Shown piece by piece: positions 1-63,803 of a stretch of DNA of 64,000 bases (position 1 is its first letter; each line of letters opens with the position of its first letter). The stretch is from Isurus oxyrinchus. Its lineage: Eukaryota. Both the position numbers and the translations under genes were made by a program. Below the pieces are notes generated by a model. That model made no database searches. It saw only the letters and a list, made by a program, of their open reading frames with translations, and was not told the origin of the DNA. Where the stretch lies: contig JANJGN010000013.1 of NCBI GenBank assembly GCA_026770705.1, positions 100,998,001 through 101,062,000 on the forward strand, written 5' to 3'.

Positions 1-330
1 ATAATCTTTCCTTGTAAACAATCGCTCATTCTTGTCGACAAAAGACAATGAATTGTTTGTTGACATTTGTTGACACCATATGCTTGCCTGAAAAGCAAAT
101 GCCTTTTGCAGGCAATTTGCTCCAGCAACTGCTCTGTAGATTAACTGCTGGATTTTGAGAATTGAATTAGTGATAAGTGATTTTGGGTATAACTATTTTT
201 CTGTTTCTTACCTTTCTAGTATCATCTCTAACGTGTTCCTTCAACTGAAGTAAATTCAGTGTACATTATGTAGGAAAGCGATGCAGCCAGCAGTGAATTA
301 ATATGCTTTACCATTTTCTCTGGTATTTAG

Positions 331-1497
331 GGCCAACACCATTTGGAGGAACAGGGAAACCAACAACCTCAGAGACTACCATCAGTGGTGGTGAGAATTG
401 TTCTTCTCCTCATCAGCATGTTAAGTTAATGTTGTGAGATTCGTGTATTAATATTCTGTAATATTTCCTCTGCTACATAGTGCGAACACTAACGACAGTG
501 ACAGGTGTACTTCCTGCTTCAGAAACCAGCATTTCTGGTGAGTAGAGCTAATTTGATTTGATTAGGTTAAATTATGTCAGAACGATTTGTGATTTAGCGC
601 TCTGCAATATGATTTCTGCTGCATAGGACCAACCCAAGCTACAGGGACAGGATTTGCAATGGTTTCAGAAACCAGGATTACCGGTGAGCACATGTTTTCT
701 CATTGCCATGTGAAGTTTGCCCTGCCAGCTGCAGGCAGTCAAGAGTCTTGATGTTTTTGCAAAATTGAAGTTGATGATATGTTGAGTCCAATCACATGGA
801 AATATCTAAATGAGTGCCAAATGAGTTGTTCCACAGTATTATTGGTAATGTTCTTACTTCATAAATGTGCTTCTTTATGCTTTGTTCTGGCAGTGGTTTC
901 TGATGGTAAAATTGTCAAATGATAATAAATTGTTAATGCTTTGTGTAAGCTTAGGTTAACTACTAGATTTTGAGAATTGAATTAGTGATAGGAGATTTTG
1001 GGTATAACTATTTTTCTGTTTCTTACCTTTCTAGTATCATCTCTAACATGTTCCTTCAACTGAAGGAAATTCAGACTACATTATATAGGAAAGCGATGCA
1101 GCCAGCAGTGAATTAATATGCTTACCATTTTCTCTGGTATTTAGGGCCAACACCATTTGGAGGAACAGGGAAACCAACAACCTCAGAGACTACCATCAGT
1201 GGTGGTGAGAATTGTTCTTCTCCTCATCAGCATCTTAAGTTAATGTTGTGCGATTCGTCTGTTAATATTCTGTGATATTTTCTCTGCTACATAGTGCCAA
1301 CATTTACTACAGTGACAGGTGTACTTCCTTCTTCAGAGACTAGCATTTCTGGTGTGTAGAACTAATTTCATCTGATTAGGTGAAACTATTTCAGAGCGAT
1401 TTGTGATTTAGCTATCTGCCATATGATCTCTGTTACATAGGACCAACTCCAGCTACAGGGACAGGCATTGCCATGGTTTCAGAAACCAAGATTACTG
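331..1497 (+). CDS. Microexon cluster C-D-E-C'-D'-E'
   Basis: C 331-390 (GPTPFGGTGKPTTSETTISG), D 481-537 (VRTLTTVTGVLPASETSIS), E 627-683 (GPTQATGTGFAMVSETRIT), C' 1145-1204, D' 1295-1351 (VPTFTTVTGVLPSSETSIS), E' 1441-1497 (GPTPATGTGIAMVSETKIT). All have AG/GT; short introns are 90 and 89 nt. Confidence 0.8.
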
Positions 1498-4400
1498 GTG
1501 AGGGCATTTTTTCTCATTGCCATGTGAAGTTTGCACTGCTAACTGTGGGTAGTCAAGGGTCTTGATGTTTTTTGCAAAATTGAAGTTGATGACATGTTGA
1601 GTCCAATCACATGGAAATGTATAAATGAGTGCCATATGAGTTGTTCCATAGAATTATTGGTAATGTTCTTACTTCATAAATGTGCTTCTTTATGTTTTGT
1701 TCTGGCAGTGGTTTCTGATGGTAAAATTGTCAAATGATAATAAATTGTTAACGCTTTGTGTAAGCTTAGGTGCAATTTTTATGCCACATTTTACAAAATG
1801 TGAGCAGAAATACCTTGTGCCTTTACTTACCTCACTGCTTATTGATGCATATTTGTTTTTTGATTAAAAGACGTGTTGATTAACGAGGTATGAGAATTAT
1901 GATTGTTGCCAGTTATAGTTGATATCTGGCATTGTCAAGTATTTCTTTCGGTCGAGGACGGAGCTGTTAAGTAAGCTTGTTGAATTGATTGGAGTCAGTC
2001 CGATGTGTCATTGTCGGATGAGTGATTGTGTTATTGGCAGTATCTTTGAATAGCAAGAGATACGGATCATGAAGACAGCCCAAAACCTTTTGAGAAATGG
2101 AGGAACTGGGGCCTGACAATTCCATTTGTTTTTTTGAAGCAAATATGGAAATTGGAAATTTGCGATTATTTGCTTTTTTGCATTTGTAGTTTGAAGAACT
2201 ATCAGGTTGCTGTTATTAATTTTAGAAACCTAAATGCATTTATTTGAACGAATGATGATGGCAGAAGACATCAGGTTATCTGATGAGTCGAGAAATGCTT
2301 GTCTGTCCTGAGGCCAATAGGATGTGCTTAATAGCATCTCAATTGATGAACTGGAAAATGAAAGGATTCTTTTGGGGTGATTTTGGGCAATGATGAGGCT
2401 TCCATGTGAAATATGTTTTTGGAAAGACAGAGAACATTATTTTCTCAAAATGGAATACAGCAAGGTTTCCATTAGCAAATAATTGGTGAAGTAGTGATGA
2501 GAAGTGCCATGTGCTGAGTGGGATTTTTAAATTGCGCCCCTGAAGTTGTTAGAAATATCAATCAGTTTGAAATCTTTCAAATTAATTTTGCCTGTTAAGA
2601 AGCGCTCAATCTTGTGAAGAAAAGCAAATGAAGCATTTGCTGACACCATGTTATTGAAGATATCATTGCCTGAAAATGAAGTGCCTTTTATCGGCAACTT
2701 TGTCCAGGAATTGCTCTGGAAGTTATCCTCTACCTTATTGGAAGGGAATTGCTGCTAGGCTTTGTTGTATATAATTATTGTTCTATTCCTTATCTTTGTA
2801 GAAGTAATTGTATGTTACTCCTTCAACTGAACTAGATGATGCGAATATCTCAACATTATCTCAGAAGTCGATGCAGCCAGTAGTGAATTAATAATCTGCC
2901 ATTTCCTCTGGCATTTAGGGCCAACACCATTTGGTGGAACTGGAAGGCCAAGAATTTTAGAGACCACCATCAGTGGTGAGTATGGCTCTTCTCCTCATCA
3001 GCATGTTAAGTTAAATTTCTGTGATTCGGGTATAAGTATTCTGTAATATTTCCTCTGCTACGTTAAATATAATCTTTCCTTGTAAACAACTGCTCACTCT
3101 TGTCAACAAAAGATTATGAAGCGTTTGTTGACACTCTGTCATTAAGGATATTCTTGCCGGAAAAGCAAATGCCTTTTGCTAGCAACTTGCTGCAGCACCT
3201 GCTCTGGAGGTTAACTGCTAGATTTTGAGAATTGAATTGGTGATAGGAGATTTTGTGAATAATTATTTTTCTGTTTCTTTCCTTTGTAGTATCATTTCTA
3301 GCTTGCTCCTTCAACTGATGTAAATTCAGTGTACATTTTCTAGGAAAGCAATGCAGCCAGTAGTGATTTAATATATTGCACCATTTTCTCCGGTATTTAG
3401 GGCCAACACCATTTGGTGGAACTGGAAGGCCAAGAACTTCAGAGACCACCATCAGTGGTGAGTATTGTTCTTCTCCTCATCAGCATGTTAAATAAAATTT
3501 CTGCGATTCGGGTATAAGTATTCTGTAATATTTCCTCTGCTACATCAAGTATAATCTTTCCTTGTAAACAATCGCTCATTCTTGTCAACAAAAGACAATG
3601 AATTGTTTGTTGCCATTTGTTGACACCATGTCATTCATGATATTCTTGCCTGAAAAGCAAATGCCTTTTGCAGGCAATTTGCTCCAGCAACTGCTCTGGG
3701 GTTTAACTGCTTGATTTTGAGAATTGAATTAGTGATAGGAGATTTTGGGTATAACTATTTTTCTGTTTCTTACCTTTCTAGTATCATCTCTAACATGTTC
3801 CTTCAACTGAAGTAAATTCAGTGTACATTATGTAGGAAAGCGATGCAGCCAGCAGTGAATTAATATGCTTTACCATTTTCTCTGGTATTTAGGGCCAACA
3901 CCATTTGGAGGAACAGGGAGACCAACAACTTCAGAGACTACCATCAGTGGTGGTGAGAATTGTTCTTCTCCTCATCAGCATGTTAAGTTAATGTTGTGCG
4001 ATTCGTGTATTAATATTCTGTAATATTTCCCCTGCTACATAGTGCGAACACTAACGACAGTGACAGGTGTACTTCCTGCTTCAGAAACCAGCATTTCTGG
4101 TGAGTAGAGCTAATTTCATTTGATTAGGTGAAATTATTTCAGAGCGATTTGTGAATTAGCGCTCTGCAATATGATCTCTGCTGCATAGGACCAACCCAAG
4201 CTACAGGGACAGGATTTGCAATGGTTTCATAAATTAGGATTACTGGTGAGCACATGTTTTCTCATTGCCATGTGAAGTTTGCCCTGCCAACTGCAGGCAG
4301 TCAAGGGTCTTGATGTTTTTGCAAAATTGAAGTTGATGTTATGTTGAGCCCAATCACATGGAAATGTCGAAATAAGTGCCAAATGGGTTTTCCACAGTAT

Positions 4401-7400
4401 TATTGGTAATGTTCTTACTTCATAAATGTGCTTCTTTATGCTTTGTTCTGGCAGTGGTTTCTGATGGTAAAATTGTTAAATGATAATAAATTGTTAACGG
4501 TTTGTGTAAGCTTAGGTTCAACTTTTAAGCCACATTTTACAAAATGTGAGGACAAACACCTTGTTCCTTTACTTTCCTCACTGCTTATTGATGTATATTT
4601 GTTTTGTGATTCAAAGACGTGTTGGTTAAAGAGGTATGAGAATTGTGATTGTTGCCAGTTATAGTTGATATCTGGCATTATCAAGTATTTCTTTTGGTCG
4701 AGGACGGAACAGTTAAGTAAGGTTGTTGAATTGATTGGAGTCAGTCCGCTGTGTCATTGTTGGATGAGTGATTGTGTTATTGGCAGTATCTTTGAATTAG
4801 CAAGCGATACGGATAATGAAGATGGCCCAAAACTCTTTGAGAAATGGAGGAACTGGGGCCTGACAATTCCATTTATTTTTTCAAAGCAAATATTGAAATT
4901 GAAAATTTGTGATTATTTGTGTTTTTGCATTTGTCGTTTGAAGAACTATCAGGTTGCTGTTATTAATTTTAGAGTCCTAAATGCATTTATTTGAACGAAT
5001 GATGATAGCAGAAGACATCAGGTTATCTGATGAGTAGAGAAATGCTTGTCTGTCCTGAGGCCAAGAGGATGTGCTTAAAAGCATCTCATTTGATGAACTG
5101 AAAAATGAAAGGATTCTTTTGGGGTGATTTTGGGCAATGATGAGGCTTCCATGTGAAATATGTATTTGGAAAGGCAGAGAACATTATTTTCTCAAAATGG
5201 AATACAGCAAGGTTTCCATTAGCAAATAATTGGTGAAGTAGTGATGAGAAGTGCCATGTGCTGAGTGGGATTTTTAAATTGCGCCCTTGAAGTTGTTAGA
5301 AATAACAAACAGTTTGAAATCTTTCAAATTAAGTTTTGCCTGTTAAGAAGTGCTCAATCTTGTGAATAGATGCAAATGAAGCATTTGCTGATACCATGTC
5401 ATTGAAGATATTATTGCCTGAAAATTAAGTGCCTTTTATTGGCAAATTTGTCCAGGAATTGCTCTGGAAGTTATCCTCTACCTTATTGGAAGGGAATTGC
5501 TGCTAGGCTATGTTGTATATAATTACTGTTCTATTCCTTTTCTTTGTAGAATTAAGTGTAAGTTGCTCCTTCAACTGAACCAGATGTTGCGAATATCTCA
5601 ACATTATCTCAGAAGCCGATGCAGCCAGTAGTGAATTAATAATCTGCCTTTTCCTCTGGCATTTAGGGCCAACGCCATTTGGAGGAGCAGGAAGACCAAG
5701 AACTTCAGAGACCACCTTCAGTGGTGAGTATTGTTCTTCTCCTCATCAGCATGTTAAGTTAAATTTCTGTGATTCGGATGTAAGTATTCTGTAATGTTTC
5801 CTCTGCTACGTTAGATATAATCTTTCCTTGTAATCAACTGCTCATTCTTGTCAACAAAAGATTATGAAGCGTTTGTTGACACTCTGTCATTAAGGATATT
5901 CTTGCCGGAAAAGCAAATGCCTTTTGCTAGCAACTTGCTCCAGCACGTGCTCTGGAGGTTAACTGCTAGATTTTGAGAATTGAATTGGTGATAGGAGATT
6001 TTGGGAATAATTATTTTTCTGTTTCTTACCTTTGTAGTATCATCTCTAGCTTACTGCTTCAACTGATGCAAATTTAGTTTACATTTTCTAGGAAAGCGAT
6101 GCATCCAGTAGTGATTTTATATATTGTACCATTTTCTCCGATATTTAGGGCCAACACCATTTGGTGGATCTGGAAGACCAAGAACTTCAGAGACCACCAT
6201 CAGTGGTGAGTATTATTCTTCTCCTTATCCGCGTGTTAAGTTCAATTTCTGCGATTTTTGTATTAGTATGCTGAAATATTTCCTCTGCTACATTAAGTAT
6301 AATCTTTCCTTGTAAACAATCGCTCATTCTTGTCGACAAAAGACAATGAATTGTTTGTTGACATTTGTTGACACCATATGCTTGCCTGAAAAGCAAATGC
6401 CTTTTGCAGGCAATTTGCTCCAGCAACTGCTCTGTAGATTAACTGCTGGATTTTGAGAATTGAATTAGTGATAAGTGATTTTGGGTATAACTATTTTACT
6501 GTTTCTTACCTTTCTAGTATCATCTCTAACGTGTTCCTTCAACTGAAGTAAATTCAGTGTACATTATGTAGGAAAGCGATGCAGCCAGCAGTGAATTAAT
6601 ATGCTTTACCATTTTCTCTGGTATTTAGGGCCAACACCATTTGGAGGAACAGGGAAACCAACAACCTCAGAGACTACCATCAGTGGTGGTGAGAATTGTT
6701 CTTCTCCTCATCAGCATGTTAAGTTAATGTTGTGAGATTCGTGTATTAATATTCTGTAATATTTCCTCTGCTACATAGTGCGAACACTAACGACAGTGAC
6801 AGGTGTACTTCCTGCTTCAGAAACCAGCATTTCTGGTGAGTAGAGCTAATTTCATTTGATTAGGTTAAATTATTTCAGAGCGATTTGTGATTTAGCGCTC
6901 TGCAATATGATTTCTGCTGCATAGGACCAACCCAAGCTACAGGGACAGGATTTGCAATGGTTTCAGAAACCAGGATTACCGGTGAGCACATGTTTTCTCA
7001 TTGCCATGTGAAGTTTGCCCTGCCAGCTGCAGGCAGTCAAGAGTCTTGATGTTTTTGCAAAATTGAAGTTGATGATATGTTGAGTCCAATCACATGGAAA
7101 TATCTGAATGAGTGCCAAATGAGTTGTTCCACAGTATTATTGGTAATGTTCTTACTTCATAAATGTGCTTCTTTATGCTTTGTTCTGGCAGTGGTTTTTG
7201 ATGGTAAAATTGTCAAATGATAATAAATTGTTAATGCTTTGTGTAAGCTTAGGTTAACTACTAGATTTTGAGAATTGAATTAGTGATAGGAGATTTTAGG
7301 TATAATTATTTTTCTGTTTCTTACCTTTCTAGTATCATCTCTAATATGTTCCTTCAACTAAAGTAAATTCAGTGTACATTATATAGGAAAGCGATGCAGC

Positions 7401-10400
7401 CAGCAGTGAATTAATATGCTTTACCATTTTCTCTGGTATTTAGGGCCAACACCATTTGGAGGAACAGGGAAACCAACAACCTCAGAGACTACCATCAGTG
7501 GTGGTGAGAATTGTTCTTCTCCTCATCAGCATCTTAAGTTAATGTTGTGCGATTCGTGTATTAATATTCTGTGATATTTTCTCTGCTACATAGTGCCAAC
7601 ATTTACTACAGTGACAGGTGTACTTCCTTCTTCAGAGACTAGCATTTCTGGTGTGTAGAACTAATTTCATCTGATTAGGTGAAACTATTTCAGAGCGATT
7701 TGTGATTTAGCTTTCTGCCATATGATCTCTGATACATAGGACCAACTCCAGCTACAGGGACAGGCATTGCCATGTTTTCAGAAACCAAGATTACTGGTGA
7801 GGGCATGTTTTCTCATTGCCATGTGAAGTTTGCACTGCTAACTGTGGGTAGTCAAGGGTCTTGATGTTTTTTGCAAAATTGAAGTTGATGACATGTTGAG
7901 TCCAATCACATGGAAATGTATAAATGAGTGCCATCTGAGTTGTTCCATAGAATTATTGGTAATGTTCTTACTTCATAAATGTGCTTCTTTATGCTTTGTT
8001 CTGGCAGTGGTTTCTGATGGTAAAATTGTCAAATGATAATAAATTGTTAACGCTTTGTGTAAGCTTAGGTGCAATTTTTATGCCACATTTTACAAAATGT
8101 GAGCAGAAATACCTTGTGCCTTTACTTACCTCACTGCTTATTGATGCATATTTGTTTTTTGATTAAAAGACGTGTTGATTAAAGAGGTATGAGAATTATG
8201 ATTGTTGCCAGTTATAGTTGATATCTGGCATTGTCAAGTATTTCTTTCGGTCAAGGACGGAGCTATTAAGTAAGCTTGTTGAATTGATGGGAGTCAGTCC
8301 GATGTGTCAATGTCGGATGAGTGATTGTGTTATTGGCAGTATCTTTGAATAGCAAGAGATACGGATCATGAAGACAGCCCAAAACCTTTTGAGAAATGGA
8401 GGATCTGGGGCCTGACAATTCCATTTGTTTTTTCGAAGCAAATATGGAAATTGAAAATTTGCGATTATTTGCTTTTTTGCATTTGTAGTTTGAAGAACTA
8501 TCAGGTTGCTGTTATTAATTTTAGAAACCTAAATGCATTTATTTGAACGAATGATGATGGCAGAAGACATCAGGTTATCTGATGAGTCGAGAAATGCTTG
8601 TCTGTCCTGAGGCCAATAGGATGTGCTTAATAGCATCTCAATTGATGAACTGGAAAATGAAAGGATTCTTTTGGGGTGATTTTGGGCAATGAAGAGGCTT
8701 CCATGTGAAATATGTTTTTGGAAAGACAGAGAACATTATTTTCTCAAAATGGAATACAGCAAGGTTTCCATTAGCAAATAATTGGTGAAGTAGTGATGAG
8801 AAGTGCCATGTGCTGAGTGGGATTTTTAAATTGCGCCTCTGAAGTTGTTAGAAATATCAATCAGTTTGAAATCTTTCAAATTAATTTTGCCTGTTAAGAA
8901 GCGCTCAATCTTGTGAAGAAAAGCAAATGAAGCATTTGCTGACACCATGTCATTGAAGATATCATTGCCTGAAAATGAAGTGCCTTTTATCGGCAACTTT
9001 GTCCAGGAATTGCTCTGGAAGTTATCCTCTACCTTATTGGAAGGGAATTGCTGCTAGGCTTTGTTGTATATAATTATTGTTCTATTCCTTATCTTTGTAG
9101 AAGTAATTGTATGTTGCTCCTTCAACTGAACTAGATGATGCGAATATCTCAACATTATCTCAGAAGTCGATGCAGCCAGTAGTGAATTAATAATCTGCCA
9201 TTTCCTCTGGCATTTAGGGCCAACACCATTTGGTGGAACTGGAAGGCCAAGAATTTTAGAGACCACCATCAGTGGTGAGTATGGCTCTTCTCCTCATCAG
9301 CATGTTAAGTTAAATTTCTGTGATTCGGGTATAAGTATTCTGTAATATTTCCTCTGCTACGTTAAATATAATCTTTCCTTGTAAACAACTGCTCATTCTT
9401 GTCAACAAAAGATTATGAAGCATTTGTTGACACCCTGTCATTAATGATATTCTTGCCGGAAAAGCAAATGCGTTTTGCAGGCAACTTGCTGCAGCACCTG
9501 CTCTGGAGGTAACCGCTAGATTTTGAGAATTGAATTGGTGATAGGAGATTTTGTGAATAATTATTTTTCTGTTTCTTACCTTTGTAGTATCATTTCTAGC
9601 TTGCTCCTTCAACTGATGTAAATTCAGTGTACATTTTCTAGGAAAGCAATGCAGCCAGTAGTGATTTAATATATTGCACCATTTTCTCCGGTATTTAGGG
9701 CCAACACCATTTGGTGGAACTGGAAGGCCAAGAACTTCAGAGACCACCATCAGTGGTGAGTATTGTTCTTCTCCTCATCAGCACGTTAAATAAAATTTCT
9801 GCGATTCGGGTATAAGTATTCTGCAATATTTCCTCTGCTACATCAAGTATAATCTTTCCTTGTAAACAATCGCTCATTCTTGTCAACAAAAGACAATGAA
9901 TTGTTTGTTGCCATTTGTTGACACCATGTCATTCATGATATTCTTGCCTGAAAAGCAAATGCCTTTTGCAGGCAATTTGCTCCAGCAACTGCTCTGGGGT
10001 TTAACTGCTTGATTTTGAGAATTGAATTAGTGATAGGAGATTTTGGGTATAACTATTTTTCTGTTTCTTACCTTTCTAGTATCATCTCTAACATGTTCCT
10101 TCAACTGAAGTAAATTCAGTGTACATTATGTAGGAAAGCGATGCAGCCAGCAGTGAATTAATATGCTTTACCATTTTCTCTGGTATTTAGGGCCAACACC
10201 ATTTGGAGGAACAGGGAGACCAACAACTTCAGAGACTACCATCAGTGGTGGTGAGAATTGTTCTTCTCCTCATCAGCATGTTAAGTTAATGTTGTGCGAT
10301 TCGTGTATTAATATTCTGTAATATTTCCCCTGCTACATAGTGCGAACACTAACGACAGTGACAGGTGTACTTCCTGCTTCAGAAACCAGCATTTCTGGTG

Positions 10401-52400: not shown

Positions 52401-55400
52401 GTGCTCTGCAGTATGATCTCTGCGAAATAGGACCAACTCCAGCTACAGGGACAGGCATTGGCATGGTTTCAGAGACCAGGATTACTGGGGTGGACATGTT
52501 TTCTCATTGCCATGTGAAGTTTGCCCTGCCAACAGTAGGCAGTCAAGGGTCTTGATGTTTTTGCACAATTGAAGTTGATGATATGTTTAGTCCAATCACA
52601 TGTAAATGTATAAATGAGTGCCAAATGAGGTGCTCCATAGTATTATTGGTAGTCTTCTTACTTCATAAATGTGCTTCTTTATGCTTTGTTCTGACAGTGG
52701 TTTCTGATGGTAAAATTGTCAAATGATAATAAACTATTAACGCTTTGTGTAAGCTTAGGTACAATTGCTGTGCCGCATTTTACAAAATGTGAGCACAAAT
52801 ACCTTGTTCCTTTACTTTCCTCACTGCTTATTGATGCATATTTGTTTTGTGATTAAAGACTTGTTGATTAAAGAGCTATGAGAATTGTGATTGTTGCCAG
52901 TTATAGTTGATATCTGGCATTGTCAAGTAATTCTTTTGATCCAGGACGGATCAGTTAAGTAAGCTTGTTGAATTGATTGGAGTCAGTCCGATGTGTCATT
53001 GTTGGATGAGTGATTGTGTTGTTGGCAGTATCTTTGAGTTAGCAAGCGATACGGGTAATGAAGACGGCCCAAAACTTTTTGAGAAATGGAGGAACTGGGG
53101 CCTGACAATTCCATTTGTTTTTTCGAAGCAAATATGGAAATTGAAAATTTGCGATTATTTGCTTTTTTGCATTTATACTTAGAAGAACTATCAGGTTGCT
53201 GTTATTAATTTTAGAAACCTAAATGCATTTATTTGAATGAATGATGAAAGCCGAAGACATCAGGTTATCTGATGAGTAGAGAAATGCTTGTCTGTCCTGA
53301 GGCCAAGAGGATGTGCTTAAAAGCATCTCATTTGATGAACTGGAAAATGAAAGGATTCTTTTGGGGTGATTTTGGGCAATGATGAGGCTTCCATGTGAAA
53401 TATGTGTTTGGAAAGACAGAGAACATTATTTTCTCAGAATGGTATACAGCAAGGTTTCCTTCCATTAGCAAATAATTGGTGAAGTAGTGATGAGAAGTGC
53501 CATGTGCTGAGTGGGATTTTTAAATTGCGCCCTTGAAGTTGTTAGAAATATCAATCAGTTTGAAATCATGCAAATTAAGTTTTGCCTGTTAAGAAGCGCT
53601 CAATCTCGTGAAGAAAAGCAAATGAAGCATTTGCTGACACCATGTCCTTGAAGCTATCATTGCCTGAAAATTAAGTGCCTTTTATTGGCAACTTGGTCAA
53701 GGAATTGCTCTGGAAGTTAACCTCTACCTTTTGGGAAGGGAATTGCTGCTAGGCTATGTTGTATATAATTATTGTTCTACTCCTTAACTTTGTAGAAGTA
53801 ATTGTAAGTGGCTCTTTCAACTGAACTAGATGATGCGAATAGCTCAACATTATCCCAGCAGCCGAAGCTTTCAGTTGTGAATTAATAACCTGTGCCATTT
53901 CCTCTGGCATTTAGGGCCAACGCCATTTGTAGGAACAGGAAGACCAAGAACTTCAGAGACCGCTATCAGTGGTGAGTATGGCTCTTCTCCTCATCAGCAT
54001 GTTAAGTTAAATTTCTGTGATTAGTGTAGAAGTATTCTGTAATATTTCCTCTGCTACGTTAAATATAATCTTTCCTTGTAAACAATCGCTCAATCTTGTC
54101 AACAAATGATAATGAATCGTTTGTTGACACCATGTCATTAATGATATTCTTGCCGTACAGCAAATGCCTTTTGCAGGCAACTTGCTCCAGCACCTGCTCT
54201 GGAGGTTAACTGCTAGATTTTGAGAATTGAATTGGTGATAGGAGATTTTGGGTATAATTATTTTTCTGTTTCTTACCTTTGTAGTATCATCTCTAGCTTA
54301 CTACTTCAACTGATGTAAATTTAGTGTACATTTTCTAGGAAAGCAATGCAGCCAGTACTGAATTAATATATTGTACCATTTTCACTGGTATTTAGGGCCA
54401 ACACCATTTGGTGGAAGAGGAAGACCAAGAACTTCAGAGACCACCATCAGTGGTGAGTATTGTTCTTCTCATTATCAGTGTGTTAAGTTAAATTTCTGCA
54501 ATTTGTGTATTAGTATGCTGAAATATTTCCTCTGCTGCATTAAGTATAATCTTTCCTTGTAAACAATCGCTCATTCTTGTTGAGAAAAGATAAAGAAGCG
54601 ATTGTTGACACCATGTCATTCATGATATTCTTGCCTGAAAAGCAAATGCCTTTTGCAGGCAACTTGCTCCAGCAACTGCTCTGGAGTTTAACTGCTAGAT
54701 TTTGAGAATTGAATTAGTGATAAGAAATTCTGGGCATAATTATTTTTCTGTTTCTTACCTTTGTAGTATCATCTCTAGCATACTCCTTCAACTGAAGTAA
54801 ATTCAGTGTACATTATGTAGGAAAGCGATGCAGCCAGCAGTGAATTAATATGCTTTATCATTTTCTCTGGTATTTAGGGCCAACACCATTTGGAGGAACA
54901 GGGAGACCAACAACTTCAGAGACTACCATCAGTGGTGGTGAGAATTGTTCTTCTCCTCATCAGCATGTTAATTAATGTTGTGCGATTCGTCTATTAATAT
55001 TCTGTAATATTTCTTCTGCTACATAGTGCCAACACTAACTACAGTGACAGGTGTACTTCCTGCTTCAGAGACCAGCATTTCTGTTGAGTAGAGCTAATTT
55101 CATTTGATTAGGTGAAATTATTTCAGAGCAATTTGTGATTTAGCGCTCTGCAAAATGATCTCTGCCACATAGGACCAACTCCATCTACAGGGTTAGGCAT
55201 TATCATGGTTTCAGAAACCAGGATTACTGGTGAGCACATGTTTTCTCATTGCCATGTGAAGTTTGCCCTGCCATAGGCAGTCAAGGGTCTTGATGTTTTT
55301 GCAAAATTGAAGTTGATGATATGTTGAGTCCAATCACATGGAAATGTCTAAATGAGTGCCTAATGAGGTGTTCCACAGCATTATTGGTAGTGTTCTTACT

Positions 55401-58400
55401 TCATAAATGTGCTTCTTTATGCTTTGTTCTGGCAGTGGTTTCTGATGGTAAAATTGTCAAATGATAATAAACTATTAACGCTTTGTGTAAGCTTAGGTAC
55501 AATTGCTGTGCCGCATTTTACAAAATGTGAGCACAAATACCTTGTTCCTTTACTTTCCTCACTGCTTATTGATGCATATTTGTTTTGTGATTAAAGACTT
55601 GTTGATTAAAGAGCTATGAGAATTGTGATTGTTGCCAGTTATAGTTGATATCTGGCATTGTCAAGTAATTCTTTTGATCCAGGACGGATCAGTTAAGTAA
55701 GCTTGTTGAATTGATTGGAGTCAGTCCGATGTGTCATTGTTGGATGAGTGATTGTGTTGTTGGCAGTATCTTTGAGTTAGCAAGCGATACGGGTAATGAA
55801 GATGGCCCAAAACTTTTTGAGAAATGGAGGAACTGGGGCCTGACAATTCCATTTGTTTTTTCGAAGCAAATATGGAAATTGAAAATTTGTGATTATTTGC
55901 TTTTTTGCATTTGTAGTTTGAAGAACTATCAGGTTGCTGTTATTAATTTTAGAGACCTAACTGCACTTATTTGAACGAATGATGATAGCAGAAGACATCA
56001 GGTTATCTGATGAGTAGAGCAATGCTTGTCTGTCCTGAGGCCAAGAGAAAGTGCTTAAAAGCATCTCATTTGATGAACTGGAAAATGAAAGGATTCTTTT
56101 GGGGTGATTTTGGGCAATCATGAGGCTTCCAAATGAAATATGTTTTTGGAAAGACAGAGAACATTATTTTCTCAAAAAGGAATACAGCAAGGTTTCTATT
56201 CGCAAATAATTGGTGAAGTAGTGATGAGAAGTGCCATGTGCTGAGTTGGACTTTTAAATTGCGCCCCTGAAGTTGTTAGAAATATCAATCAGTTTGAAAT
56301 CATGCAAATTAATTTCGCCTGTTAAGAAGCGCTCAATCTTGTGAAGAAAAGCAAATGAAGCATTTGCTGACACCATGTCATTGAAGATATCATTGCCTGA
56401 AAATGAAGTGCCTTTAATCGGCAACTTTGTCAGGAATTGCTCTGGAAGTTAACCTCTACCTTATGGGAAGGGAATTGCTGCTAGGCTCTGTTGTATATAA
56501 TTATTGTTCTATTCCTTATCTTTGTTGAAGTAATTGTAAGTTGCTCCTTCAACTGAACTAGATGATGTGGTTTATCTCAACATTATCTCAGAAGCCGATG
56601 CAGCCAGTAGTGAATTAATAATCTCTGCCATTTCCTCTGGCATTTAGGGCCAACGCCATTTGGAGGAACAGGAAGACCGAGAATTTCAGAAACCACCATC
56701 AGTGGTGAGTGTTGTTCTTCTCCTCATCAGCATGTTAAGTTAAATTTCTGTGATTAGTGTAGAAGTATTCTGTAATATTTCCTCTGCTACGTTAAATATA
56801 ATCTTTCCCTGTAAACAATCACTCATTCTTGTCAACAAAAGATTATGAAGCGTTTGTTGACACCCTGTCATTAATGATATTGTTGGCAGAAAAGCAATTG
56901 CCTTTTGCAGGCAACTTGCTCCAGCACCTGCTCTGGAGGTTAACCACTAGATTTTGAGAATTGAATTGGTGATAGTAGATTTTGGGAATAATTATTTTTC
57001 TGTTTCTTATCTTTGTAGTATCATCTCTAGCTTACTCCTTCAACTGATGTAAATTCATTGTACATTTTCTAGGAAAGCCAGGCAGCCAGTAGTGAATTAA
57101 TATATTGTACCATTTTCTCTGGTATTTAGGGCCAACACCATTTGTTGGAACTGGAAGACCAAGAACTTCAGAGACCACCATCAGTGGTGATTATTGTTCT
57201 TCTCCTTATTAGCGTGTTAATTTAAATTTCTGTGATTTGTGTATTAGTATGCTGAAATATTTCCTCTGCTACATTAAGTATAATCTTTCCATGTAAACAA
57301 TCGCTCATTCTTGTTGAGAAAATATAATGAAGCGATTGTTGACACCATGTCATTCATGATATTCTTGCCTGAAAAGCAAATGCCTTTTGCAGGCAACTTG
57401 TTCCAGCAACTGCTCTGGAGTTTAACTGCTAGATTTTGAGAATTGAATTATTGATAGAAGATTTTGGGTATAATTATTTTTTGTTTTTTACCTTTCTAGT
57501 ATCATCTCTAACATGCTCCTTCAACAGAAGTAAATTCAGTGTCCATTATGTAGGAAATCGATGCAGCCAGCAGTGAATTAATTTGCTTTACCATTTTCTC
57601 TGGTATTTAGGGCCAACATCATTTGGAGGAACAGGGAGACCAACAACTTCAGAGACTACCATCAGTGGTGGTGAGAACTGTTCTTCTCCTCATCAGCATG
57701 TTAAGTTAATGTTGTGCGATTCGTGTATTAATATTCTGTAATATTTCCTCTGCTACATAGTGCCAACACTAACTACAGTGACAGGTATACTTCCTGCTTC
57801 AGAGACCAGCGTTAATGGTGAGTAGAGCTTATTTAACTTCATTAGGTGAAATTATTTCAGAGCAATTTGTGATTTAGCTATCTGCAATATGATCTCTACT
57901 TTCAGGCTCTGTCTTACTCCCTCCCTTTTTCTTTGATACCAATGGGTCCTTGGGGTCATTTGTTATCAGAAATTGCCATTCATGTTCTTCTCCCTGATAA
58001 ACTAAGTTGTCTGCTAACATAGTGGTGATTTTTACCCCCTTTACGTTTATATTTCTCCCTTGTAGCAACAATGTCCATCTAGCGATTCTATTTTGGTTAA
58101 CTGTACCATCCTTAATCCTTCCGTCTAACAGTAGCTGTACAAGGGTGTGTTCTGTTAATATTGTAAGTGGGTTTAGTCCCACTATCTCGGTAAAATGCTG
58201 CACTGCCCAAAAGACAGCTAGCAAGTGTTTTTCGCATACCATATACCCCTGCTCTACTGATGAGAGCATATGTGAGGCGTACGCTACTGGTCGCAATTTC
58301 CTGTGTATCTCCTGCCGAAAGGGTGGTGTCTGTGGTAGCCACCTTCATTGAAAACGGCTCAGTTGGATTTGGGGTTTTCAGAGCAGGCGCGGCAGCTAGT

Positions 58401-61400
58401 GCTTGCTTTAGAGTGGTCATGGCCTGGTTGTGTTCTGTTTTCCACTCCCAGGCCACATTCTTTTTTAATAATTCCATTAGCGGGGCTGCTTTTGTGGCGA
58501 ATCCATCAATGTGGTCCCTGCAATATCCCACCAAGCCTAAGAAGGACCTTAAACCTTTTACATCCCATGGAACAGGGAGTCTGCCAACCGTCTCTGCCCA
58601 TCGTTTGTCAATGTCCCTCTTCCCCGGTGTCAGAATCATTCCCAAGTAAGTAACTTTTTGTTTCGTGATCAGTGCTTTTTTAGGGTTAATCTTTAATCCC
58701 AAGTCATGGAACAATTGCCGTAATTCACTTAGCAGTTAATAATGTTTCTTTTTGGTTTTAGTTTGTTGGAGTAAGTCGTCTACATACTGCACTAGACATT
58801 CGGGCCTCGAGAATCCTTTTAACCCTTCCCTCGCCATTGATGAAATATGGACGGGGAATTGTGGAATCCCTGTGGCAGGGCGATCCATGTATATTGCTGT
58901 CCTTGGAAAGTAAACGTGAATTTATATTGACACTCTTTCTCCAGTGGAATAGACCAAAAACCGTTACTTATGTCCAACACCATAAACCACTGCGCATCCT
59001 CATTTTGTCGAACTACTGTCTCTGGGCTAGTTGCTACAGTAGGGGCTGTTAACAGGGTGACTTTATTTAATTCTCTGTAATCTATCGTTAGTCGCCAGCT
59101 ACCGTCTGGTTTCCTCACTGGTCAAATCGGCGGGTTGTTAGTAGAAGCTATTGGTCTTAATATCCCTTGCTGCAGCAGACTCTGTATCACCTTTCCTATC
59201 TCTTCTTCTGTTTGTTTTGGGAAACTACTGGTTTGGGGTCTGGACCTTGTAAGTGAACATTCCCGGTCATTTCCCCACAAGCATGTTTATGTCGGGCGAA
59301 TACTATTGAGTTTTGTGCAATAATTTGTTGTACTTCACGATTGTCACTCATTTCTCCTGGTTCTATCTACATTTCCCCGATCATGCATATCCTATCCTGA
59401 TATTCCCCCCTGGGATGAGTGTGTGATTTATACTGCCTATGCCCAAAGGCATTTGCCAAATCATACAATTAACGGGGTCAAAGCAGAGTCCCACTTTGGC
59501 CATATAGTTGCTCCCTAATATATGTTCTTGTTCTCTGGGTAATTTGATAAGGGCCACTGAATGCTCTATCAATATGTCTCCCACACCGACTTCCAATGGT
59601 ACACTCACATATCCCACTTGTGAATGCCTTGTGAATCCACTTAGAATAATTTTGTTTTGAATTTTCCAATCTATGTCATTGATCTGAGTGGTGTTAACGG
59701 TGGTTCGGGACCCACCTGTGTCCCAAAGGAATGTAATAGGGTGGCCTCCAACCCTACCATTCACTAGGGGTCTCCCCGTGTCATCCCACCGCGTATCACA
59801 CACCCATAACGGAGAGGCCTGAGACTGTCATTGCAGTTCGGGGTACAACCCGGAACTCAGTGGTATTTCTGTCATATCACACTGAGGACTTGGTCTATTT
59901 GGCTGTTCCATGGGTAGGTTCTGGTTTCCTCCCCAACCTGCATTTTCTCATCTCGAATTCAGGCAGTCCCTTGCGAAGTGTCCCTCTCGGCCACAGTTAT
60001 AGCATCTGGACACCTCGCCCTGAGTTCACCCCGTTCCCGAGAAGTTTCCTTTTCCTCTGCCTCTACCTCTTCCCACTGTCTGATAAGCTGGAGGGGGTTC
60101 CCTCTGAGTAGGTCCCCTCCCTTCATTTCTCCAGGTTGTCGCCTGATTCTTAACAGGCATTGCTCTGTCCCTGGATGTCTTTCATAGTTTTGGTGTTTCC
60201 CTTTCCCATTCTCTAACCATCTTCTTAATTATCCAGGGCTCCGTATGTGTGTCATCAGTGGGATCAAACTGATCTAATGCCTTGCTCGACTCCTCAGTGC
60301 CATGCAACACTAGCGTTCTCAGCCATCGGTTCCTAAACACCAGCTGTAAGTTATCCCTATCTAGGCCTATGCCATAGACCCCTTGAAACACCGCCCAAAT
60401 GTGAGCCAAAAATACGGTGGGGTGCTCACCTTTTCTTTGATAGCATTTCATCAGCCCTGCCACTGGGTCCCCTCTGTTATCGCCCGTGACAGATAATACC
60501 TAGTTCTTTAAGGCCTCATTTTTGCCTCTACCAAGTTTTTGTTCCTCCGGTAGGGCAGAGTGTATATGTGGATGTAGGCACGTTAGAATTAATTTTCTTT
60601 CCTTGGTATCGTCTAAGCTGTGTACCCCTCTCTGTTGCCTGACCGCTAGGAACAACTCCCTAGGATCATTCCCGGGCACGCACGTCTCAATTTCTTTCGC
60701 AACATCCCTCAGTTGTTGTACCCCAAGTGGGGTGGAATATATCATATTTGGGCTGGCTGGCCCCTGGCCACCTGCCCCTGCTTGTGCTCTAGTGGTTACA
60801 AGGGGGGCCATTGGGGCAGTCGGTTTTTCTGGCTCTGGAATATATGCCGGCGGTGGAACCTCTGGTGGAGGTTCCCTGTCACCACTGCTGTATCTATCCG
60901 CCCCGTCTGCTAAATCATCCCAATCTACATCCCCTTGATTGTTTTCTTCTCCTCTTCTGGGTGCGAAAGCACACAGTATGCCCCCTCTGTATAGCTAGCT
61001 GATCTTGCGGCCTCACTATCTTCTGGCACTTTGTGCGATCACTGGTACTGTTCCTTTTTTCCTGAGCTGCTCTGTGAATCACATTCATAGCAGTTTTTAA
61101 ATCACTACATTGTTGTTTCCATCCCTCCACCTCAGCTTTAGCTGCTTGGGCTTCTCCCTCTCTCTTACCTCTTTTCATTAACCAATTTTTCGCACCGTAA
61201 CTGATATTGGTTCAAATCTGCACTTCTCTGTCTCTTTAAATCACTTACCTTCTCACTAAGGCCGGCTATCTCCTCACTGAATTTTTTATTCTCTCCCTCT
61301 AGTCTGTCTCTCTCCCTCCTAGCCTGCTGTCGGCATTCTATCCATTTCTCAAATAAACATCCGATTGCTACGGACTTTTGTACCTTTTTAAATTTCTTGA

Positions 61401-63803
61401 CATCTTTGTGCAGTTCTCCAAAGGGCTTCCCCAGTGGGTTTTCCCTTATCACCAATGTGACCTGCATACTCCCCGTATTGCGGCCACTTCCCTATTACAT
61501 ATTTTTGGAGGAGTCCCTTCCAGGCAAAACAATCCAAGTCCCCAGGGCTTGGATATTCCCCTTGATTCGTCATCTTATGTTAATGGCTATGAATTAACCC
61601 AAACTCCTGTTCTCTGTGTGCTTTGCCAACTTGGTTCGGTTTGAGGCTCCCGCTGACTCAATGGAGAGATTTATCCTCGAGCCCACCCAGGGACGCCAAA
61701 TATGTTGCCGGAGATCACTGGTAATGGTTATTAGCTTTGTACACAGAGGAGAAGAGTCAATTCTCTCTTAACTCTAAATTTGCTTTATTCGTGTCATTAG
61801 ATCATCTGTATATAGCTTATATGTCTGGTTAAATATAGACATGCAGTTTACAGCAGGTTATACAGTTTTATACCCAAAACTAGGATCTAAACGCACACCA
61901 ACTAAGTTTCTCTGACAGTCCCTGAGTGGTCACAGGATATAAAAGCTAATACCCAAAAAGGAGAGCTGATGCTGGCCAGGCGTTCCATTCTCTTCTCTCG
62001 TGTCTCTACATTGCTGACGTAGGTTCTTCCGCTTCTGCGATGGTTGGTCTCCGGAGTCTTCGCTGCTCTATGCCCGAAAACCTCCAGTCCTATACTGAAT
62101 CTTATCTCTTCAAGCTGTGCTGTCTCTCTCCCATTGGTTTAGGCCTGCTTGCCTAGTCTGTGGCATATTTTCATTGGCTTTGTTCCAAGACTTAGGTAGC
62201 ATTTCCTTGTTCCTCCTGTCCTAAATAAGGACTTGTGTCTTATCTCATTCCCTTTGTTCTTCAAGAAACTCAGCTACTTCAAACTGTTTCCAGCCAGCTC
62301 AGTCCAGTGACTGGACTCAGGTTACTTCAGGTCAAAAGTTGCTTTTGCCTGTGTCAGCAGTTCAGCTGCAGCTCCTGGCCAACACGTGTGAAGTTTGCCC
62401 TGCCAACCGTAGGCAGTCAAGGGTCTTGATGTTTTTGCAAAATTGAAGTTGATGATATGTTGAGTCCAATCACATGGAAATGTATAAATGAGTGTCATAT
62501 GAGTAGTTCCACAGTATTATTTGTAATGTTTGTACTTCTTAATTGTGCTTCTTCATCCTTTGTACTGACAATGGTCAAATGCTAGTAAATTGTGAATTCT
62601 TTGTGTCACCTTTGGTACAATTTCTGTGCCTTATGTTGGAAAATTTGAGCACAAGCATCTTGGTGTTTTACCTGCCTCACGGCATATTGACACATATTTG
62701 TTTGGAGATTAAAAGATCTTCTCACTGAATCGTTATTAGAAAAGTGATTGTAACCAGATATAATAGATATCTGGCGTTATGAATTCTAACTTTCTGTAGA
62801 GGACTGTGTTGTTAAATCAGGTTGTTGGATTTATTGGATATTGCTGATCCTGCTGATAGTTGATTGCATTCATGGCAATATGTTTTAATTTACAAGAGGC
62901 ACTCATTATGAAGACTGCCCACAACCTATTGAGAAATGGAGAACCCAGGGAATGACAGCCTCCATTTGTGTACTTGAAGCAAATATTGAAAACAAAAATT
63001 TGGGATTATGAGAAAGCATCTCATCTGATAAATTGCAAAATGAAAAGGATTCTTTTTGGATAATTTTGGACACTGATGATCCTTGCATGTGCACTTTCTA
63101 TTAAGAAAGACTGACAAAATTATTTCCTCAGATGGAAATAAAGCAAAGTGCTCATTAGCGAATAATTGAAAAGTAGTGATGAAAAGTGCCATGTGCTCAG
63201 TGGGATTTTTAAAATGCACCCTTAAAATTGTTAGAAATATCAATCAGTTTGAAATTTTTAAAATTTAGGTTTCGCTGGTAAACAAGCGCTCAATCTTTTG
63301 CTCAAAGTTTGCTGACATCATGACATTTAAGATGTCCTTGCCTGAAAAGTAACTGCCATTTGCAGGCAACTAGCTCCAACTAACTGCTTTGGAGGTTAAC
63401 CACTGGATTTTGGGAATTGAATTACTGATGGGATATTTTGAGTATAATTAATTTTCAGCTCCTTACCTGTGGTAGAAGCAATTCTAACTTGCTTCTTCAC
63501 CTGAACTAAATGAATACAAATGAACATCTAAACATGATCTTGGAAACCAATGCAGCCAGTAGTGAATTAATATATTGTACCATTTCCTCTGGTATTTAGG
63601 GCCAACACCATTTGGAGGAACAGGAAGACCATTAACTTCAGAGACCACCATCAGTGGTGATTATTGTTCTTCTCCTCACCAGCATGTTAAATTAATTTTC
63701 TGCGATTTGTGTATTAATATTCTGTAATATTTCCTCTGCTACATAGCGAAAACGGCAACTACTGTGACAGGTGTACTTCCTGCTCCTGAGTCCGGCATTA
63801 CTG
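331..63803 (+). CDS. Interior of a large spliced gene: ~112 tandem phase-1 microexons encoding a Gly/Pro/Thr/Ser-rich mucin-like (or proteoglycan-like) repeat domain; 5' and 3' ends lie outside the window
   Basis: Recurring 57/60-nt blocks are each preceded by a pyrimidine tract + AG (tttctctggtatttag, cctctgctacatag, ctctgctgcatag) and followed by GTGAG. Lengths are multiples of 3 and all exons are phase 1-1. Spliced translation gives continuous PTS/G-rich repeats. Labels used below: A, B, C, C' = GPTPFGG class; D = V(R/P)T(L/F)TTVTG class; E = GPT(Q/P)ATGTG class. Family assignment is inference from composition only. Confidence 0.8.
2919..4245 (+). CDS. Microexon cluster A-B-C-D-E (E has in-frame TAA)
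   Basis: A 2919-2975, B 3401-3457 (GPTPFGGTGRPRTSETTIS), C 3893-3952, D 4043-4099, E 4189-4245 with TAA at 4230-4232. Confidence 0.78.
5667..7796 (+). CDS. Microexon cluster A-B-C-D-E-C'-D'-E'
   Basis: A 5667-5723, B 6149-6205, C 6629-6688, D 6779-6835, E 6925-6981, C' 7444-7503, D' 7594-7650, E' 7740-7796. All have AG/GT and an open frame. Confidence 0.8.
9218..10534 (+). CDS. Microexon cluster A-B-C-D-E (E has TAA and a 9-nt deletion)
   Basis: A 9218-9274, B 9699-9755, C 10191-10250, D 10341-10397, E 10487-10534 (48 nt, TAA 10528-10530). Confidence 0.78.
11952..14081 (+). CDS. Microexon cluster A-B-C-D-E-C'-D'-E'
   Basis: A 11952-12008, B 12434-12490, C 12914-12973, D 13064-13120, E 13210-13266, C' 13729-13788, D' 13879-13935, E' 14025-14081. 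Confidence 0.8.
15503..16819 (+). CDS. Microexon cluster A-B-C-D-E (E has TAA and a 9-nt deletion)
   Basis: A 15503-15559, B 15984-16040, C 16476-16535, D 16626-16682, E 16772-16819 (TAA 16813-16815). Confidence 0.78.
18237..20366 (+). CDS. Microexon cluster A-B-C-D-E-C'-D'-E'
   Basis: A 18237-18293, B 18719-18775, C 19199-19258, D 19349-19405, E 19495-19551, C' 20014-20073, D' 20164-20220, E' 20310-20366. Confidence 0.8.
21787..23111 (+). CDS. Microexon cluster A-B-C-(D)-(E)
   Basis: A 21787-21843 (GPMPSGGTGRPRSSETTIS), B 22269-22325, C 22759-22818. D 22909-22965 has acceptor AG>TG; E 23055-23111 has TAA at 23096-23098. Confidence 0.77.
23590..25203 (+). pseudogene. Penelope-like reverse transcriptase + GIY-YIG endonuclease, N-truncated, single internal stop
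   Basis: One frame throughout: FYLLPKIHK..PGRPIIS..MDVQSLYTSIP..AMGTHMGPSYA..LRYIDD, TAG at 24523-24525, then ..VPLVLTYHP..CKRCNTC..NLVYCIRCSQCGLLYIGETKRKLGDRVAEH..GLN, ending in TGA at 25201-25203. Confidence 0.92.
25603..25641 (+). ncRNA. Degenerate minimal type-I hammerhead ribozyme motif in the Penelope-like 3' region
   Basis: AGTT-CTGTCGA-A-AGGTC-ATGAG-GACTC-GAAA-TGTC-AACT. Stem I is AGTT/AACT and stem II is GGTC/GACT. The core deviates from CUGANGA and GAAAC. Minimal hammerheads are an established feature of Penelope-like element termini. Confidence 0.55.
26657..28785 (+). CDS. Microexon cluster A-B-C-D-(E)-C'-D'-E'
   Basis: A 26657-26713, B 27139-27195, C 27619-27678, D 27769-27825, E 27915-27971 (acceptor AG>GG), C' 28433-28492, D' 28583-28639 (weak donor GTCTGT), E' 28729-28785. 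Confidence 0.78.
30208..31528 (+). CDS. Microexon cluster A-B-C-(D)-(E)
   Basis: A 30208-30264, B 30690-30746, C 31179-31238. D 31326-31382 has acceptor TG; E 31472-31528 has acceptor GG. Confidence 0.77.
32949..33793 (+). CDS. Microexon cluster A-C-(D)-E (B module absent)
   Basis: A 32949-33005, C 33441-33500, D 33591-33647 (acceptor TG), E 33737-33793. Confidence 0.77.
35214..36539 (+). CDS. Microexon cluster A-B-C-D-(E)
   Basis: A 35214-35270, B 35695-35751, C 36187-36246, D 36337-36393, E 36483-36539 with CAA>TAA at 36491-36493. Confidence 0.77.
37957..39277 (+). CDS. Microexon cluster A-B-C-(D)-(E)
   Basis: A 37957-38013, B 38439-38495, C 38928-38987. D 39075-39131 has acceptor TG; E 39221-39277 has acceptor GG. 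Confidence 0.77.
40698..41542 (+). CDS. Microexon cluster A-C-(D)-E (B module absent)
   Basis: A 40698-40754, C 41190-41249, D 41340-41396 (acceptor TG), E 41486-41542. Confidence 0.77.
42963..44288 (+). CDS. Microexon cluster A-B-C-D-(E)
   Basis: A 42963-43019, B 43444-43500, C 43936-43995, D 44086-44142, E 44232-44288 with TAA at 44240-44242. Confidence 0.77.
45706..47022 (+). CDS. Microexon cluster A-B-C-D*-(E)
   Basis: A 45706-45762, B 46188-46244 (donor GTGCGT), C 46670-46729, D 46820-46876 (last base T rather than G), E 46966-47022 (donor GT>GG). Confidence 0.77.
48429..49745 (+). CDS. Microexon cluster A-B-C-D*-(E)
   Basis: A 48429-48485, B 48911-48967, C 49393-49452, D 49543-49599 (ends in T), E 49689-49745 (donor GG). 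Confidence 0.77.
51172..52487 (+). CDS. Microexon cluster A-B-C-D*-(E)
   Basis: A 51172-51228, B 51653-51709, C 52135-52194, D 52285-52341 (ends in T), E 52431-52487 (donor GG). Confidence 0.77.
53915..55229 (+). CDS. Microexon cluster A-B-C-(D)-E
   Basis: A 53915-53971, B 54396-54452, C 54878-54937, D 55027-55083 (donor GT>TT), E 55173-55229 (GPTPSTGLGIIMVSETRIT). Confidence 0.77.
56648..57817 (+). CDS. Microexon cluster A-B-C-D (E removed at the retroviral junction)
   Basis: A 56648-56704, B 57130-57186, C 57611-57670, D 57761-57817 (VPTLTTVTGILPASETSVN). The D-E intron breaks off at 57897. Confidence 0.77.
57898..59827 (-). pseudogene. pol: Pol fragment: aspartic protease, reverse transcriptase, RNase H-like connection/tether; disrupted and truncated
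   Basis: FLWDTGGSRT (59711-59725); KPDGSWRLTIDYRELNK; LDISNGFWSIPL; YTWIALPQGFHNSP; YVDD at 58775-58786; LRSFLGLVGYCR; RPVAYAS..EKHLLA..TEH..RIARW..LADNL. Confidence 0.9.
59828..61573 (-). pseudogene. gag: Gag, disrupted by frameshifts and stops
   Basis: ORF fragments 61388-61573, 61165-61467, 60915-61178 (coiled-coil-like), 60500-60811 and 60182-60463. Motifs: PPAY 60842-60853, PTAP 60812-60823, CYNCGREGHFARDC 59963-60004, LYPEL 59834-59848. Ends in TGA at 59828-59830. The start codon is uncertain. Confidence 0.8.
61677..61698 (-). promoter_or_regulatory. Primer-binding site complementary to tRNA-Asn
   Basis: The - strand reads TGGCGTCCCTGGGTGGGCTCGA, 4 nt from the LTR end. The + strand TCGAGCCCACCCAGGGACGCCA matches the vertebrate tRNA-Asn(GUU) 3' end including CCA, as I recall that sequence. 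Confidence 0.85.
61703..62384 (-). repeat. 5' LTR (682 bp)
   Basis: 5-bp inverted termini TGTTG (61703) / CAACA (62384). On the - strand there are CCAAT boxes at 62173-62177 and 62133-62137, a weak TATA-like site near 62091-62094, and AATAAA at 61784-61789. The PBS is adjacent. Confidence 0.8.

Follow-up and report, generated by a model that had tools for sequence, protein, structure and literature searches.

The window, by which we mean the whole stretch of 64,000 nucleotides that was analysed (1..64000, forward strand; C13:100,998,001-101,062,000), lies wholly within one mucin gene of Isurus oxyrinchus. In a similarity scan that started from three exons of the window with the adjoining acceptor sequence, 112 exon copies were located between 331 and 63803, all on the forward strand, which were divided into 62 of class A, 26 of class B and 24 of class C. 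The 60-nt form is confined to class A (A60, n = 25), and all other A copies (A57, n = 37) and every B and C copy are 57 nt long (n = 87), with reading phase 1-1 in 112 of 112. This agrees with the preliminary description, which had proposed about 112 symmetric exons of 57/60 nt carrying one repeat of 19–20 residues each. Its term “microexon” was dropped, since 57 and 60 nt exceed the upper limits of 27 and 30 nt given in published abstracts. The A60 exon at 331..390 (+) encodes 20 residues and carries a 3-nt extension that shifts the donor. It is followed after 90 nt by a B exon at 481..537 (+, 19 residues) and after another 89 nt by a C exon at 627..683 (+, 19 residues), a class that has the weakest pyrimidine tract (0.60 of the acceptor versus 0.75). 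The A57 form is exemplified by the exon at 2919..2975 (+), which encodes 19 residues of the GPTPFGGTGRPRTSETTIS class; class A has arginines in the middle of its repeat. These exons are arranged in units of two types, a-a-A60-B-C and A60-B-C, separated by introns of 87–91 nt (A to B), 88–89 nt (B to C), approximately 425 nt (A to A), and approximately 462 or 1,421 nt (C to A). Within the A-to-A introns a dead vestige of the B acceptor survives, so that lone A units are likely derived from A-B-C units in which B and C were deleted.

The exons sum to 6,459 nt, or 10% of the 64-kb window, and the other 90% is intron-like. They encode 1,203 residues when the A copies alone are used and 2,153 residues when every copy is used, matching the earlier figures of about 1200 from the 62 intact GPTPFGG-class exons and about 2100 from all copies. 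A 19-letter A motif gave 108 matches in the 4.98-Gb genome, all of them in the array, with 0 on the reverse strand and 0 for a reversed control. Such a Pro/Thr/Ser (PTS) repeat is expected to be disordered. Thr and Ser together account for 37% of the repeat residues, Pro for 13–15%, and the three for 50–52%, so that Thr + Ser falls slightly below the 40% or more that is typical of a PTS domain, for which Pro above 5% is also stated in PMC4948705.

When a copy having AG, GT and no stop was counted as intact, all 62 A copies in the window were intact (AG 62/62, GT 62/62, stops 0/62; A57 37/37, A60 25/25), together with 19 of 26 B copies and 12 of 24 C copies, giving 93/112 overall. The units had previously been called AG..GT-bounded, which holds throughout class A, but the remaining copies have lost a site or carry a stop. 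The B losses are changes at splice sites. Stops are present in six C copies, four of which place an in-frame stop between intact AG and GT (4189..4245; 23,055-23,111; 36,483-36,539; 44,232-44,288; all +), and those at 10,487 and 16,772 (+) are without a donor. Stop-bearing C copies that keep their splice sites had not been mentioned in the preliminary description.

The extent of 331..63803 given there is right within the window, but the array runs far past it. We located 241 copies (133 A, 57 B, and 51 C) in a 264-kb region that contains the window, from C13:100,935,182 to approximately 101,084,770, spanning about 150 kb, of which 122 lie 5′ of the window (C13:100,935,182-100,997,907, +) and seven more diverged ones lie 3′ of it (C13:101,066,239-101,084,771, +). 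Intact copies number 132 of 133 for A, 44 of 57 for B and 29 of 51 for C, and the sole non-intact A-class copy is the last and most diverged of the array. A stop is present in 13 C copies, and in 10 of these the AG and GT on either side of it are intact. The array was built up by nested duplications, which are seen as exact repeats of 7,779, 5,068, 4,846, and 4,235 bp at offsets of 7,749, 6,285, 8,418, and 32,971, respectively, and approximately 14 kb of it is 99.7–100% identical between copies 33 kb apart. The longest of these is an exact tandem duplicate at window 30320..45847 (+), and an exact 5.1-kb duplicate occupies window 6,672-18,024. Both reflect either very recent higher-order duplication or duplication in the assembly, and among the youngest duplicates some may be artefacts of assembly. 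Retroelements have also entered the array. A Penelope-like fragment at 23586..25699 (+) lies in a long intron and is 96% alike to an RVT_1 + GIY-YIG reading frame before the array; it exists in three copies at 99.96–100% identity, having been duplicated along with the array. The frame itself, also Penelope-like, is open over 749 residues in the intron preceding the array. A broken, LTR-retroelement-like gag-pol remnant (57893..62385, −, boundaries approximate) with pieces of protease, RT and RNase H occupies the place of an expected C exon, and no terminal repeat pair was found for it within the stretch.

Transcription was examined by comparing four of eight runs guessed to be RNA with window 200-900, and two contigs were obtained from one of them, X9, and none from X10, X12 and X7. 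Within window 200-900 the contigs leave B, C and the introns uncovered, and the A60-to-B junction foreseen in the preliminary description is thus not among them, which carries no weight for or against it. Contig 1 (166 nt, depth 3.3) passes from the end of a B exon to the first base of an A exon, and the 121 letters before the A exon differ from the intron. Its 30 upstream letters have one genome match at ≤2 mismatches, namely in the B copy at C13:101,066,386, at its 3′ end, after which the assembly continues with GT. The C copy following that B, which is without a donor, is omitted from the contig; regulated omission of an intact copy was not observed. The A part shows 3 differences from the window copy, against 5 for the next assembled A, and by this count fits no downstream assembled copy, probably because the run came from another individual. 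For neither contig could the A part be assigned to a single assembled copy. Contig 2 (87 nt, depth 2.25) joins the end of an A exon to the start of another, whose first G is replaced by T; all assembled A-class copies but one begin with G. An intronless paralogue was rejected as the source of these joins, because no match to the joined exon–exon motif exists in the assembly when one mismatch is allowed, and all 108 matches of the A motif are in the array. For the same reason, both contigs are best read as spliced RNA of the array gene, at low depth and from a single run whose RNA status is guessed. They provide the junction-spanning sequence that had been proposed as a check, and class B is probably used at least sometimes.

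The closest sequences are four predicted shark proteins named “mucin-19-like / mucin-2-like”, which are 65–74% identical over D′D3 and represent orthologous models of Mustelus (P0001), Rhincodon (P0002), Scyliorhinus torazame (P0003), and Heterodontus (P0004). All four end before or at the repeat region, and the PFGG repeat occurs in none of the 181 proteins retrieved by searches up to 5,000 residues in length, which bears out the earlier remark that such a gene is easily missed by annotation. The 150 kb of apparent satellite is the core of a mucin gene, which explains the cut-short shark models of this orthogroup. The whale-shark model P0002 ends in four 19-residue units in the order A, B, C, A, followed by the same donor sequence. 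These units share 7, 6, 7, and 11 of 19 residues with the Isurus repeats (shuffle P < 2e-4, 0.017, 2e-4, and < 2e-4), where the C unit ties with A by identity. This indicates that the triad likely predates the split of these sharks, and that the PFGG variant likely arose and expanded recently. Other MUC19-like models of shark, ray and reedfish (P0005, P0035, P0105, and P0144) bear high isoform numbers (X39; clusters of 42–49 members), a hint, at the level of gene prediction, of cassette variation in related genes.

The exact repeats of 7.8, 5.1, 4.8, and 4.2 kb, the 14 kb of near-identity and the 90% of intron-like sequence might be taken to mean that the array is a non-coding intronic satellite, or was inflated by assembly, with its exon-like motifs copied passively. 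Its copies nevertheless fall into 44 A, 20 B and 18 C distinct exon sequences. The AG and GT of class A show 0 alleles per site over 65 distinct A haplotypes against 1.1–1.5 in the flanking intron, the exon–exon contigs come from the same array, and the same units recur in the same order in the whale-shark orthologue. An assembly error could alter the copy count, not the design. We therefore consider a passive satellite or artefact very improbable.

Constraint on the exon classes was evaluated after removal of the final two copies and of one that had been misclassed, on 131 A, 56 B and 51 C copies; each distinct allele was counted once, gene conversion was ignored and the Fisher test was used. 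For class A, none of 20 possible disruptive alleles (12 at splice dinucleotides and 8 nonsense) was present versus 54 of 154 synonymous or missense ones (P = 5e-4). The corresponding values were 6/16 versus 38/158 for class B (P = 0.24; one of the six is a GT-to-GC change that may still work) and 6/17 versus 44/157 for class C (P = 0.58; one is a deletion), and the difference in disruptive alleles between A and B + C was significant (P = 0.0017). Classes B and C are decaying at the neutral rate. Missense and synonymous alleles are about equally frequent, with ratios of 1.03–1.13 across the classes and 0.71 for core A. No amino-acid constraint on the repeats was thus found, which implies that only inclusion and frame are held. 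Of the paired donors of A60, the second GT is kept in 51/51 array copies and the first is lost in 2/51. We infer that selection keeps the splice sites and frame of class A, not its exact residues.

The 10 stop-bearing C copies with live AG and GT derive from two independent stop alleles that were copied with the array, and the first of them comes after 422 residues of repeats. Even modest inclusion per copy would sharply reduce full-length output, and these copies likely must be skipped. If they were usually included, the gene would still be expressed, while its main product would be degraded or be a short secreted form of approximately 1,600 residues, composed of D1–D3 and about 420 repeat residues and ending without the cystine knot, so that full-length chains would be a minority and class C would serve as a switch of length or abundance. 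The retention of splice sites around two separate stop alleles is consistent with such a switch, and short secreted MUC19 derivatives have been predicted for stickleback spiggin C (PMC4989455). However, the A exons far past the first stop and all five C-terminal exons are intact, which would need selection on read-through, and class C has the weakest acceptor and loses its sites at the neutral rate, unlike a maintained switch. Routine inclusion of these copies is hence regarded as unlikely.

Upstream of the array, 28 exons at C13:100,830,555-100,914,245 (+) encode 1,190 residues from an ATG without a stop and end in phase 1; they were mapped with two shark homologues, and small intervening exons were possibly missed. 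Their splice sites are GT-AG throughout, except for one GC donor on a VWD2 exon (C13:100,868,520-100,868,612). Pfam matches to VWD, C8 and TIL on single exons make up three VWD-C8-TIL assemblies, and the N-terminal start is signal-like, as judged by its likeness to Mustelus P0001. Downstream, five exons at C13:101,089,692-101,102,028 (+) enter in phase 1 and encode 160 residues with 19 cysteines up to a stop, which is followed by AATAAA at approximately C13:101,102,165. This C-terminal end is 30–32% identical to named mammalian MUC19 ends (E ~1e-20), among them that of dog (32%, E 5e-21). A Pfam Cys_knot/DAN match on one of these exons was below the cut-off, and a genome search with the cystine-knot exon matched itself only. 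As the 28-exon part ends in phase 1 and the C-terminal part enters in phase 1, the array stands in frame between them. A generic splice-site scan of the flanks gave 7 candidates only and missed the domain exons, which were recovered by ORF listing and tblastn.

Each of the 33 flanking exons that were mapped has an open frame and usable splice sites, and the gene totals about 274 exons. Its predicted product is 3,909 residues long with A alone and 5,296 with all intact copies. The preliminary description had looked to the flanks for unique exons in the same phase and for SEA, Link or VWD/CK domains. The in-phase exons code VWD/C8/TIL upstream and a VWC-like region and cystine knot up to the stop downstream, so that of these candidates VWD and cystine knot are present, while SEA, transmembrane and Link are not what these exons encode. 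Neither of the two results that the preliminary description had named as refuting, a lack of junction reads and a lack of in-phase flanking exons, therefore holds. The product is predicted to be a secreted mucin, in line with the large secreted O-glycoprotein proposed there, and as a member of this family it would be O-glycosylated and polymerise through disulfides of D3 and the cystine knot. Two orthologues used as queries gave no match to a fourth VWD downstream of the array. The CysD profile reached ≤1.1 bits across the gene versus 117–120 bits on a paralogue control, and a CysD remnant in the long intron was ruled out, as none was found. An orphan Thr-rich exon after D3 (C13:100,922,669) matches the Mustelus orthologue and has an acceptor but lacks an in-phase donor. 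In the orthologues, of which P0001 and P0002 contain CysD, it is followed by CysD exons, and these are absent in the Isurus gene.

The N-terminus keeps 96 of 102 conserved cysteine columns, and the six missed ones consist of one alignment shift, a pair in VWD3, a pair in D′, and one single loss. The VWD3 pair is also lacking in P0001, P0002, and P0004 and is kept in the other aligned MUC19-clade proteins, which makes its absence a possible marker of a distinct D3 assembly. The D′ pair is lost in the Isurus gene only, and the single cysteine is lost without an evident partner. A further pair, in columns below the threshold, is gone from the first TIL and is also absent in aligned mammalian MUC19. 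Each TIL cysteine pair is taken by us to form one disulfide, following the TIL pairing pattern, and on that assumption paired loss fits a folded product. The cysteine losses were mostly rejected as a sign of decay, since they are paired or shared with orthologues.

These observations bear on whether the gene is recently dead or dying, with a relic array that still expands by unequal crossing-over under leaky transcription. The neutral decay of B and C, the amino-acid ratio near 1, the lost CysD, the orphan exon and the two retroelement insertions would all be compatible with this, five nearby paralogues could cover the function, and human MUC19 has no complete ORF in any haplotype examined, according to PMC13345508. 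On the other hand, every mapped flanking exon is open, a single A-class copy out of 133 is not intact, disruptive A alleles are significantly lacking (P = 5e-4, as above), and cysteines were lost mostly in pairs. A dying gene is accordingly held to be unlikely, and a working gene is preferred.

Exons of LRRK2 encoding ROC and WD40 were read from the ORFs upstream on the same strand (C13:100,748,567 and 100,798,631, +), with the WD40 exon 32 kb before the ATG. This neighbour was missed by a genome-wide Pfam COR search and was revealed by the ORF reading. Human MUC19 and LRRK2 likewise share one region, as stated in PMC10557577. A D′D3 tree was built by FastTree from 58 sequences, comprising the gene, 49 of 122 retrieved proteins picked by name to span the families, and eight of nine paralogous loci, one being left out as too short. 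The gene joined P0001, P0002 and P0004 (support 1.0) within a shark and ray clade (0.91), which was sister to coelacanth and amniote MUC19 (1.0) in a tree that contains no named bony-vertebrate MUC6. The paralogues fell beside proteins of Carcharodon and Cetorhinus. The design of MUC19 type that had been suggested from the repeats is thus upheld by LRRK2 adjacency and by the tree, and we regard it as close to certain that the gene belongs to the MUC19 clade and that the repeats are exons.

Six D3 loci lie on C13 at 100.9-102.3 Mb, five of which are 51–56% identical to the D3 exon of the array gene. They outline a MUC19-clade cluster of six genes over 1.5 Mb (C13:100.83-102.37 Mb), in which the array gene is first and the last is inverted. 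In 10-kb samples, three paralogues showed short PTS exons with a CysD exon in tandem units of approximately 3.4, 4.4, and 5.7 kb, their short PTS frames ending at donor-like sites, and two showed one long PTS frame each (365 and at least 1,354 residues). For genes of the MUC19 clade, possession of CysD is at odds with the textbook division. A cluster having one-big-exon and exon-per-repeat paralogues would allow a direct test of the origin of single-exon mucin domains. Over 200 kb at the cluster's far end, a gene of laminin-beta type is the first that could be recognised past the last, inverted mucin; its N-terminal exon lies at C13:102,528,679, approximately 160 kb beyond that mucin. Inspection by eye of 83 filtered ORFs, a weak test, turned up no contactin exon; contactin-1 is the far-side neighbour of MUC19 in human and other mammals, which is a hint from synteny and does not define the protein family. 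Off the cluster, 11 mostly partial CysD-like matches lie on the minus strand at C15:81.39-81.47 Mb, two of them with a stop.

Taken together, the locus probably represents a working gel-forming mucin gene belonging to the MUC19 family. The array supplies its central Pro/Thr/Ser domain, with class A as the likely backbone and class C likely mostly skipped. Its product would likely be secreted and 3,900–5,300 residues long, mainly from intact A exons, with B and C likely optional or skipped as descendants of an old A-B-C triad that would now be decaying. Unequal crossing-over could change the copy number without a frameshift, and a copy losing a site would simply be skipped. Since every copy is symmetric, gain, loss or skipping keeps the frame, and the length should therefore vary among individuals and probably among transcripts. 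The cell likely includes or skips repeat exons and could thereby set mucin length. Stop-bearing C exons would mostly be skipped through their weak acceptor, and transcripts including one would probably be degraded. It is also conceivable, albeit doubtful, that in this gene of about 270 exons, where A is the protected backbone, the stop-bearing C exons act as a stochastic terminator. If so, a ladder of N-terminal, chain-capping mucins would be made beside the full-length polymer, and splicing would tune the gel mesh. The expanding array also offers a clean system for studying selection on exon classes.

The gene resembles the MUC19/Muc19/spiggin clade, which PMC4948705 characterises by three VWD-C8-TIL assemblies, a central PTS region, no fourth VWD, and a VWC-like region with a cystine knot. 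Tandem expansion as in the present cluster is described for stickleback spiggin in PMC4989455 and PMC2180178, and three MUC19 paralogues are given for Callorhinchus in PMC4948705. Unlike MUC2, MUC5AC and MUC5B, the array gene is without a fourth VWD and without CysD; CysD was tied to MUC2/5 by Lang 2016, and it is carried by the shark orthologues and paralogues. MUC19 had been cited in the preliminary description as an exon-per-repeat mucin, which was not confirmed in print: according to PMC10557577, the main 30-bp repeat of human MUC19 lies in one exon of about 12 kb, in contrast to the 241 separate exons of Isurus. Among titles and the beginnings of abstracts, with few subscription papers included, no description of the array gene or of the exon structure of shark MUC19 genes was found, and the array gene does not appear in the accessible parts of PMC4200417, PMC3056801, and PMC10707392.

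A close architectural parallel is chicken Muc13, in whose PTS domain every exon corresponds to a single, nearly identical repeat (Lang et al. 2006, PMC1552070); those authors suggested that splicing, in addition to recombination, controls its length. That gene is a membrane SEA mucin, whereas the Isurus gene is of secreted, polymeric type; its repeat exons fall into three classes, and it contains higher-order duplications and copies with stops. Xenopus laevis FIM-B.1 is said to have an exon-per-repeat structure too. Further likenesses are Xenopus tropicalis Otogl/MucXS, a gel-forming mucin with a multi-exonic mucin domain (PMC5789918), and X. laevis FIM-C.1, which is polymorphic by alternative splicing (PMC7177656). 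The exon-per-repeat design is hence already in print for chicken Muc13 and, as a multi-exonic domain, for frog Otogl, and the Isurus gene is a very large example of it. What is new is the gene itself, its scale, a decay that is specific to certain classes and includes copies bearing stops, and the mixture of both architectures in one cluster. The design is thereby extended to cartilaginous fish on a far larger scale, which bears on the ancestral status suggested for it in PMC1552070.
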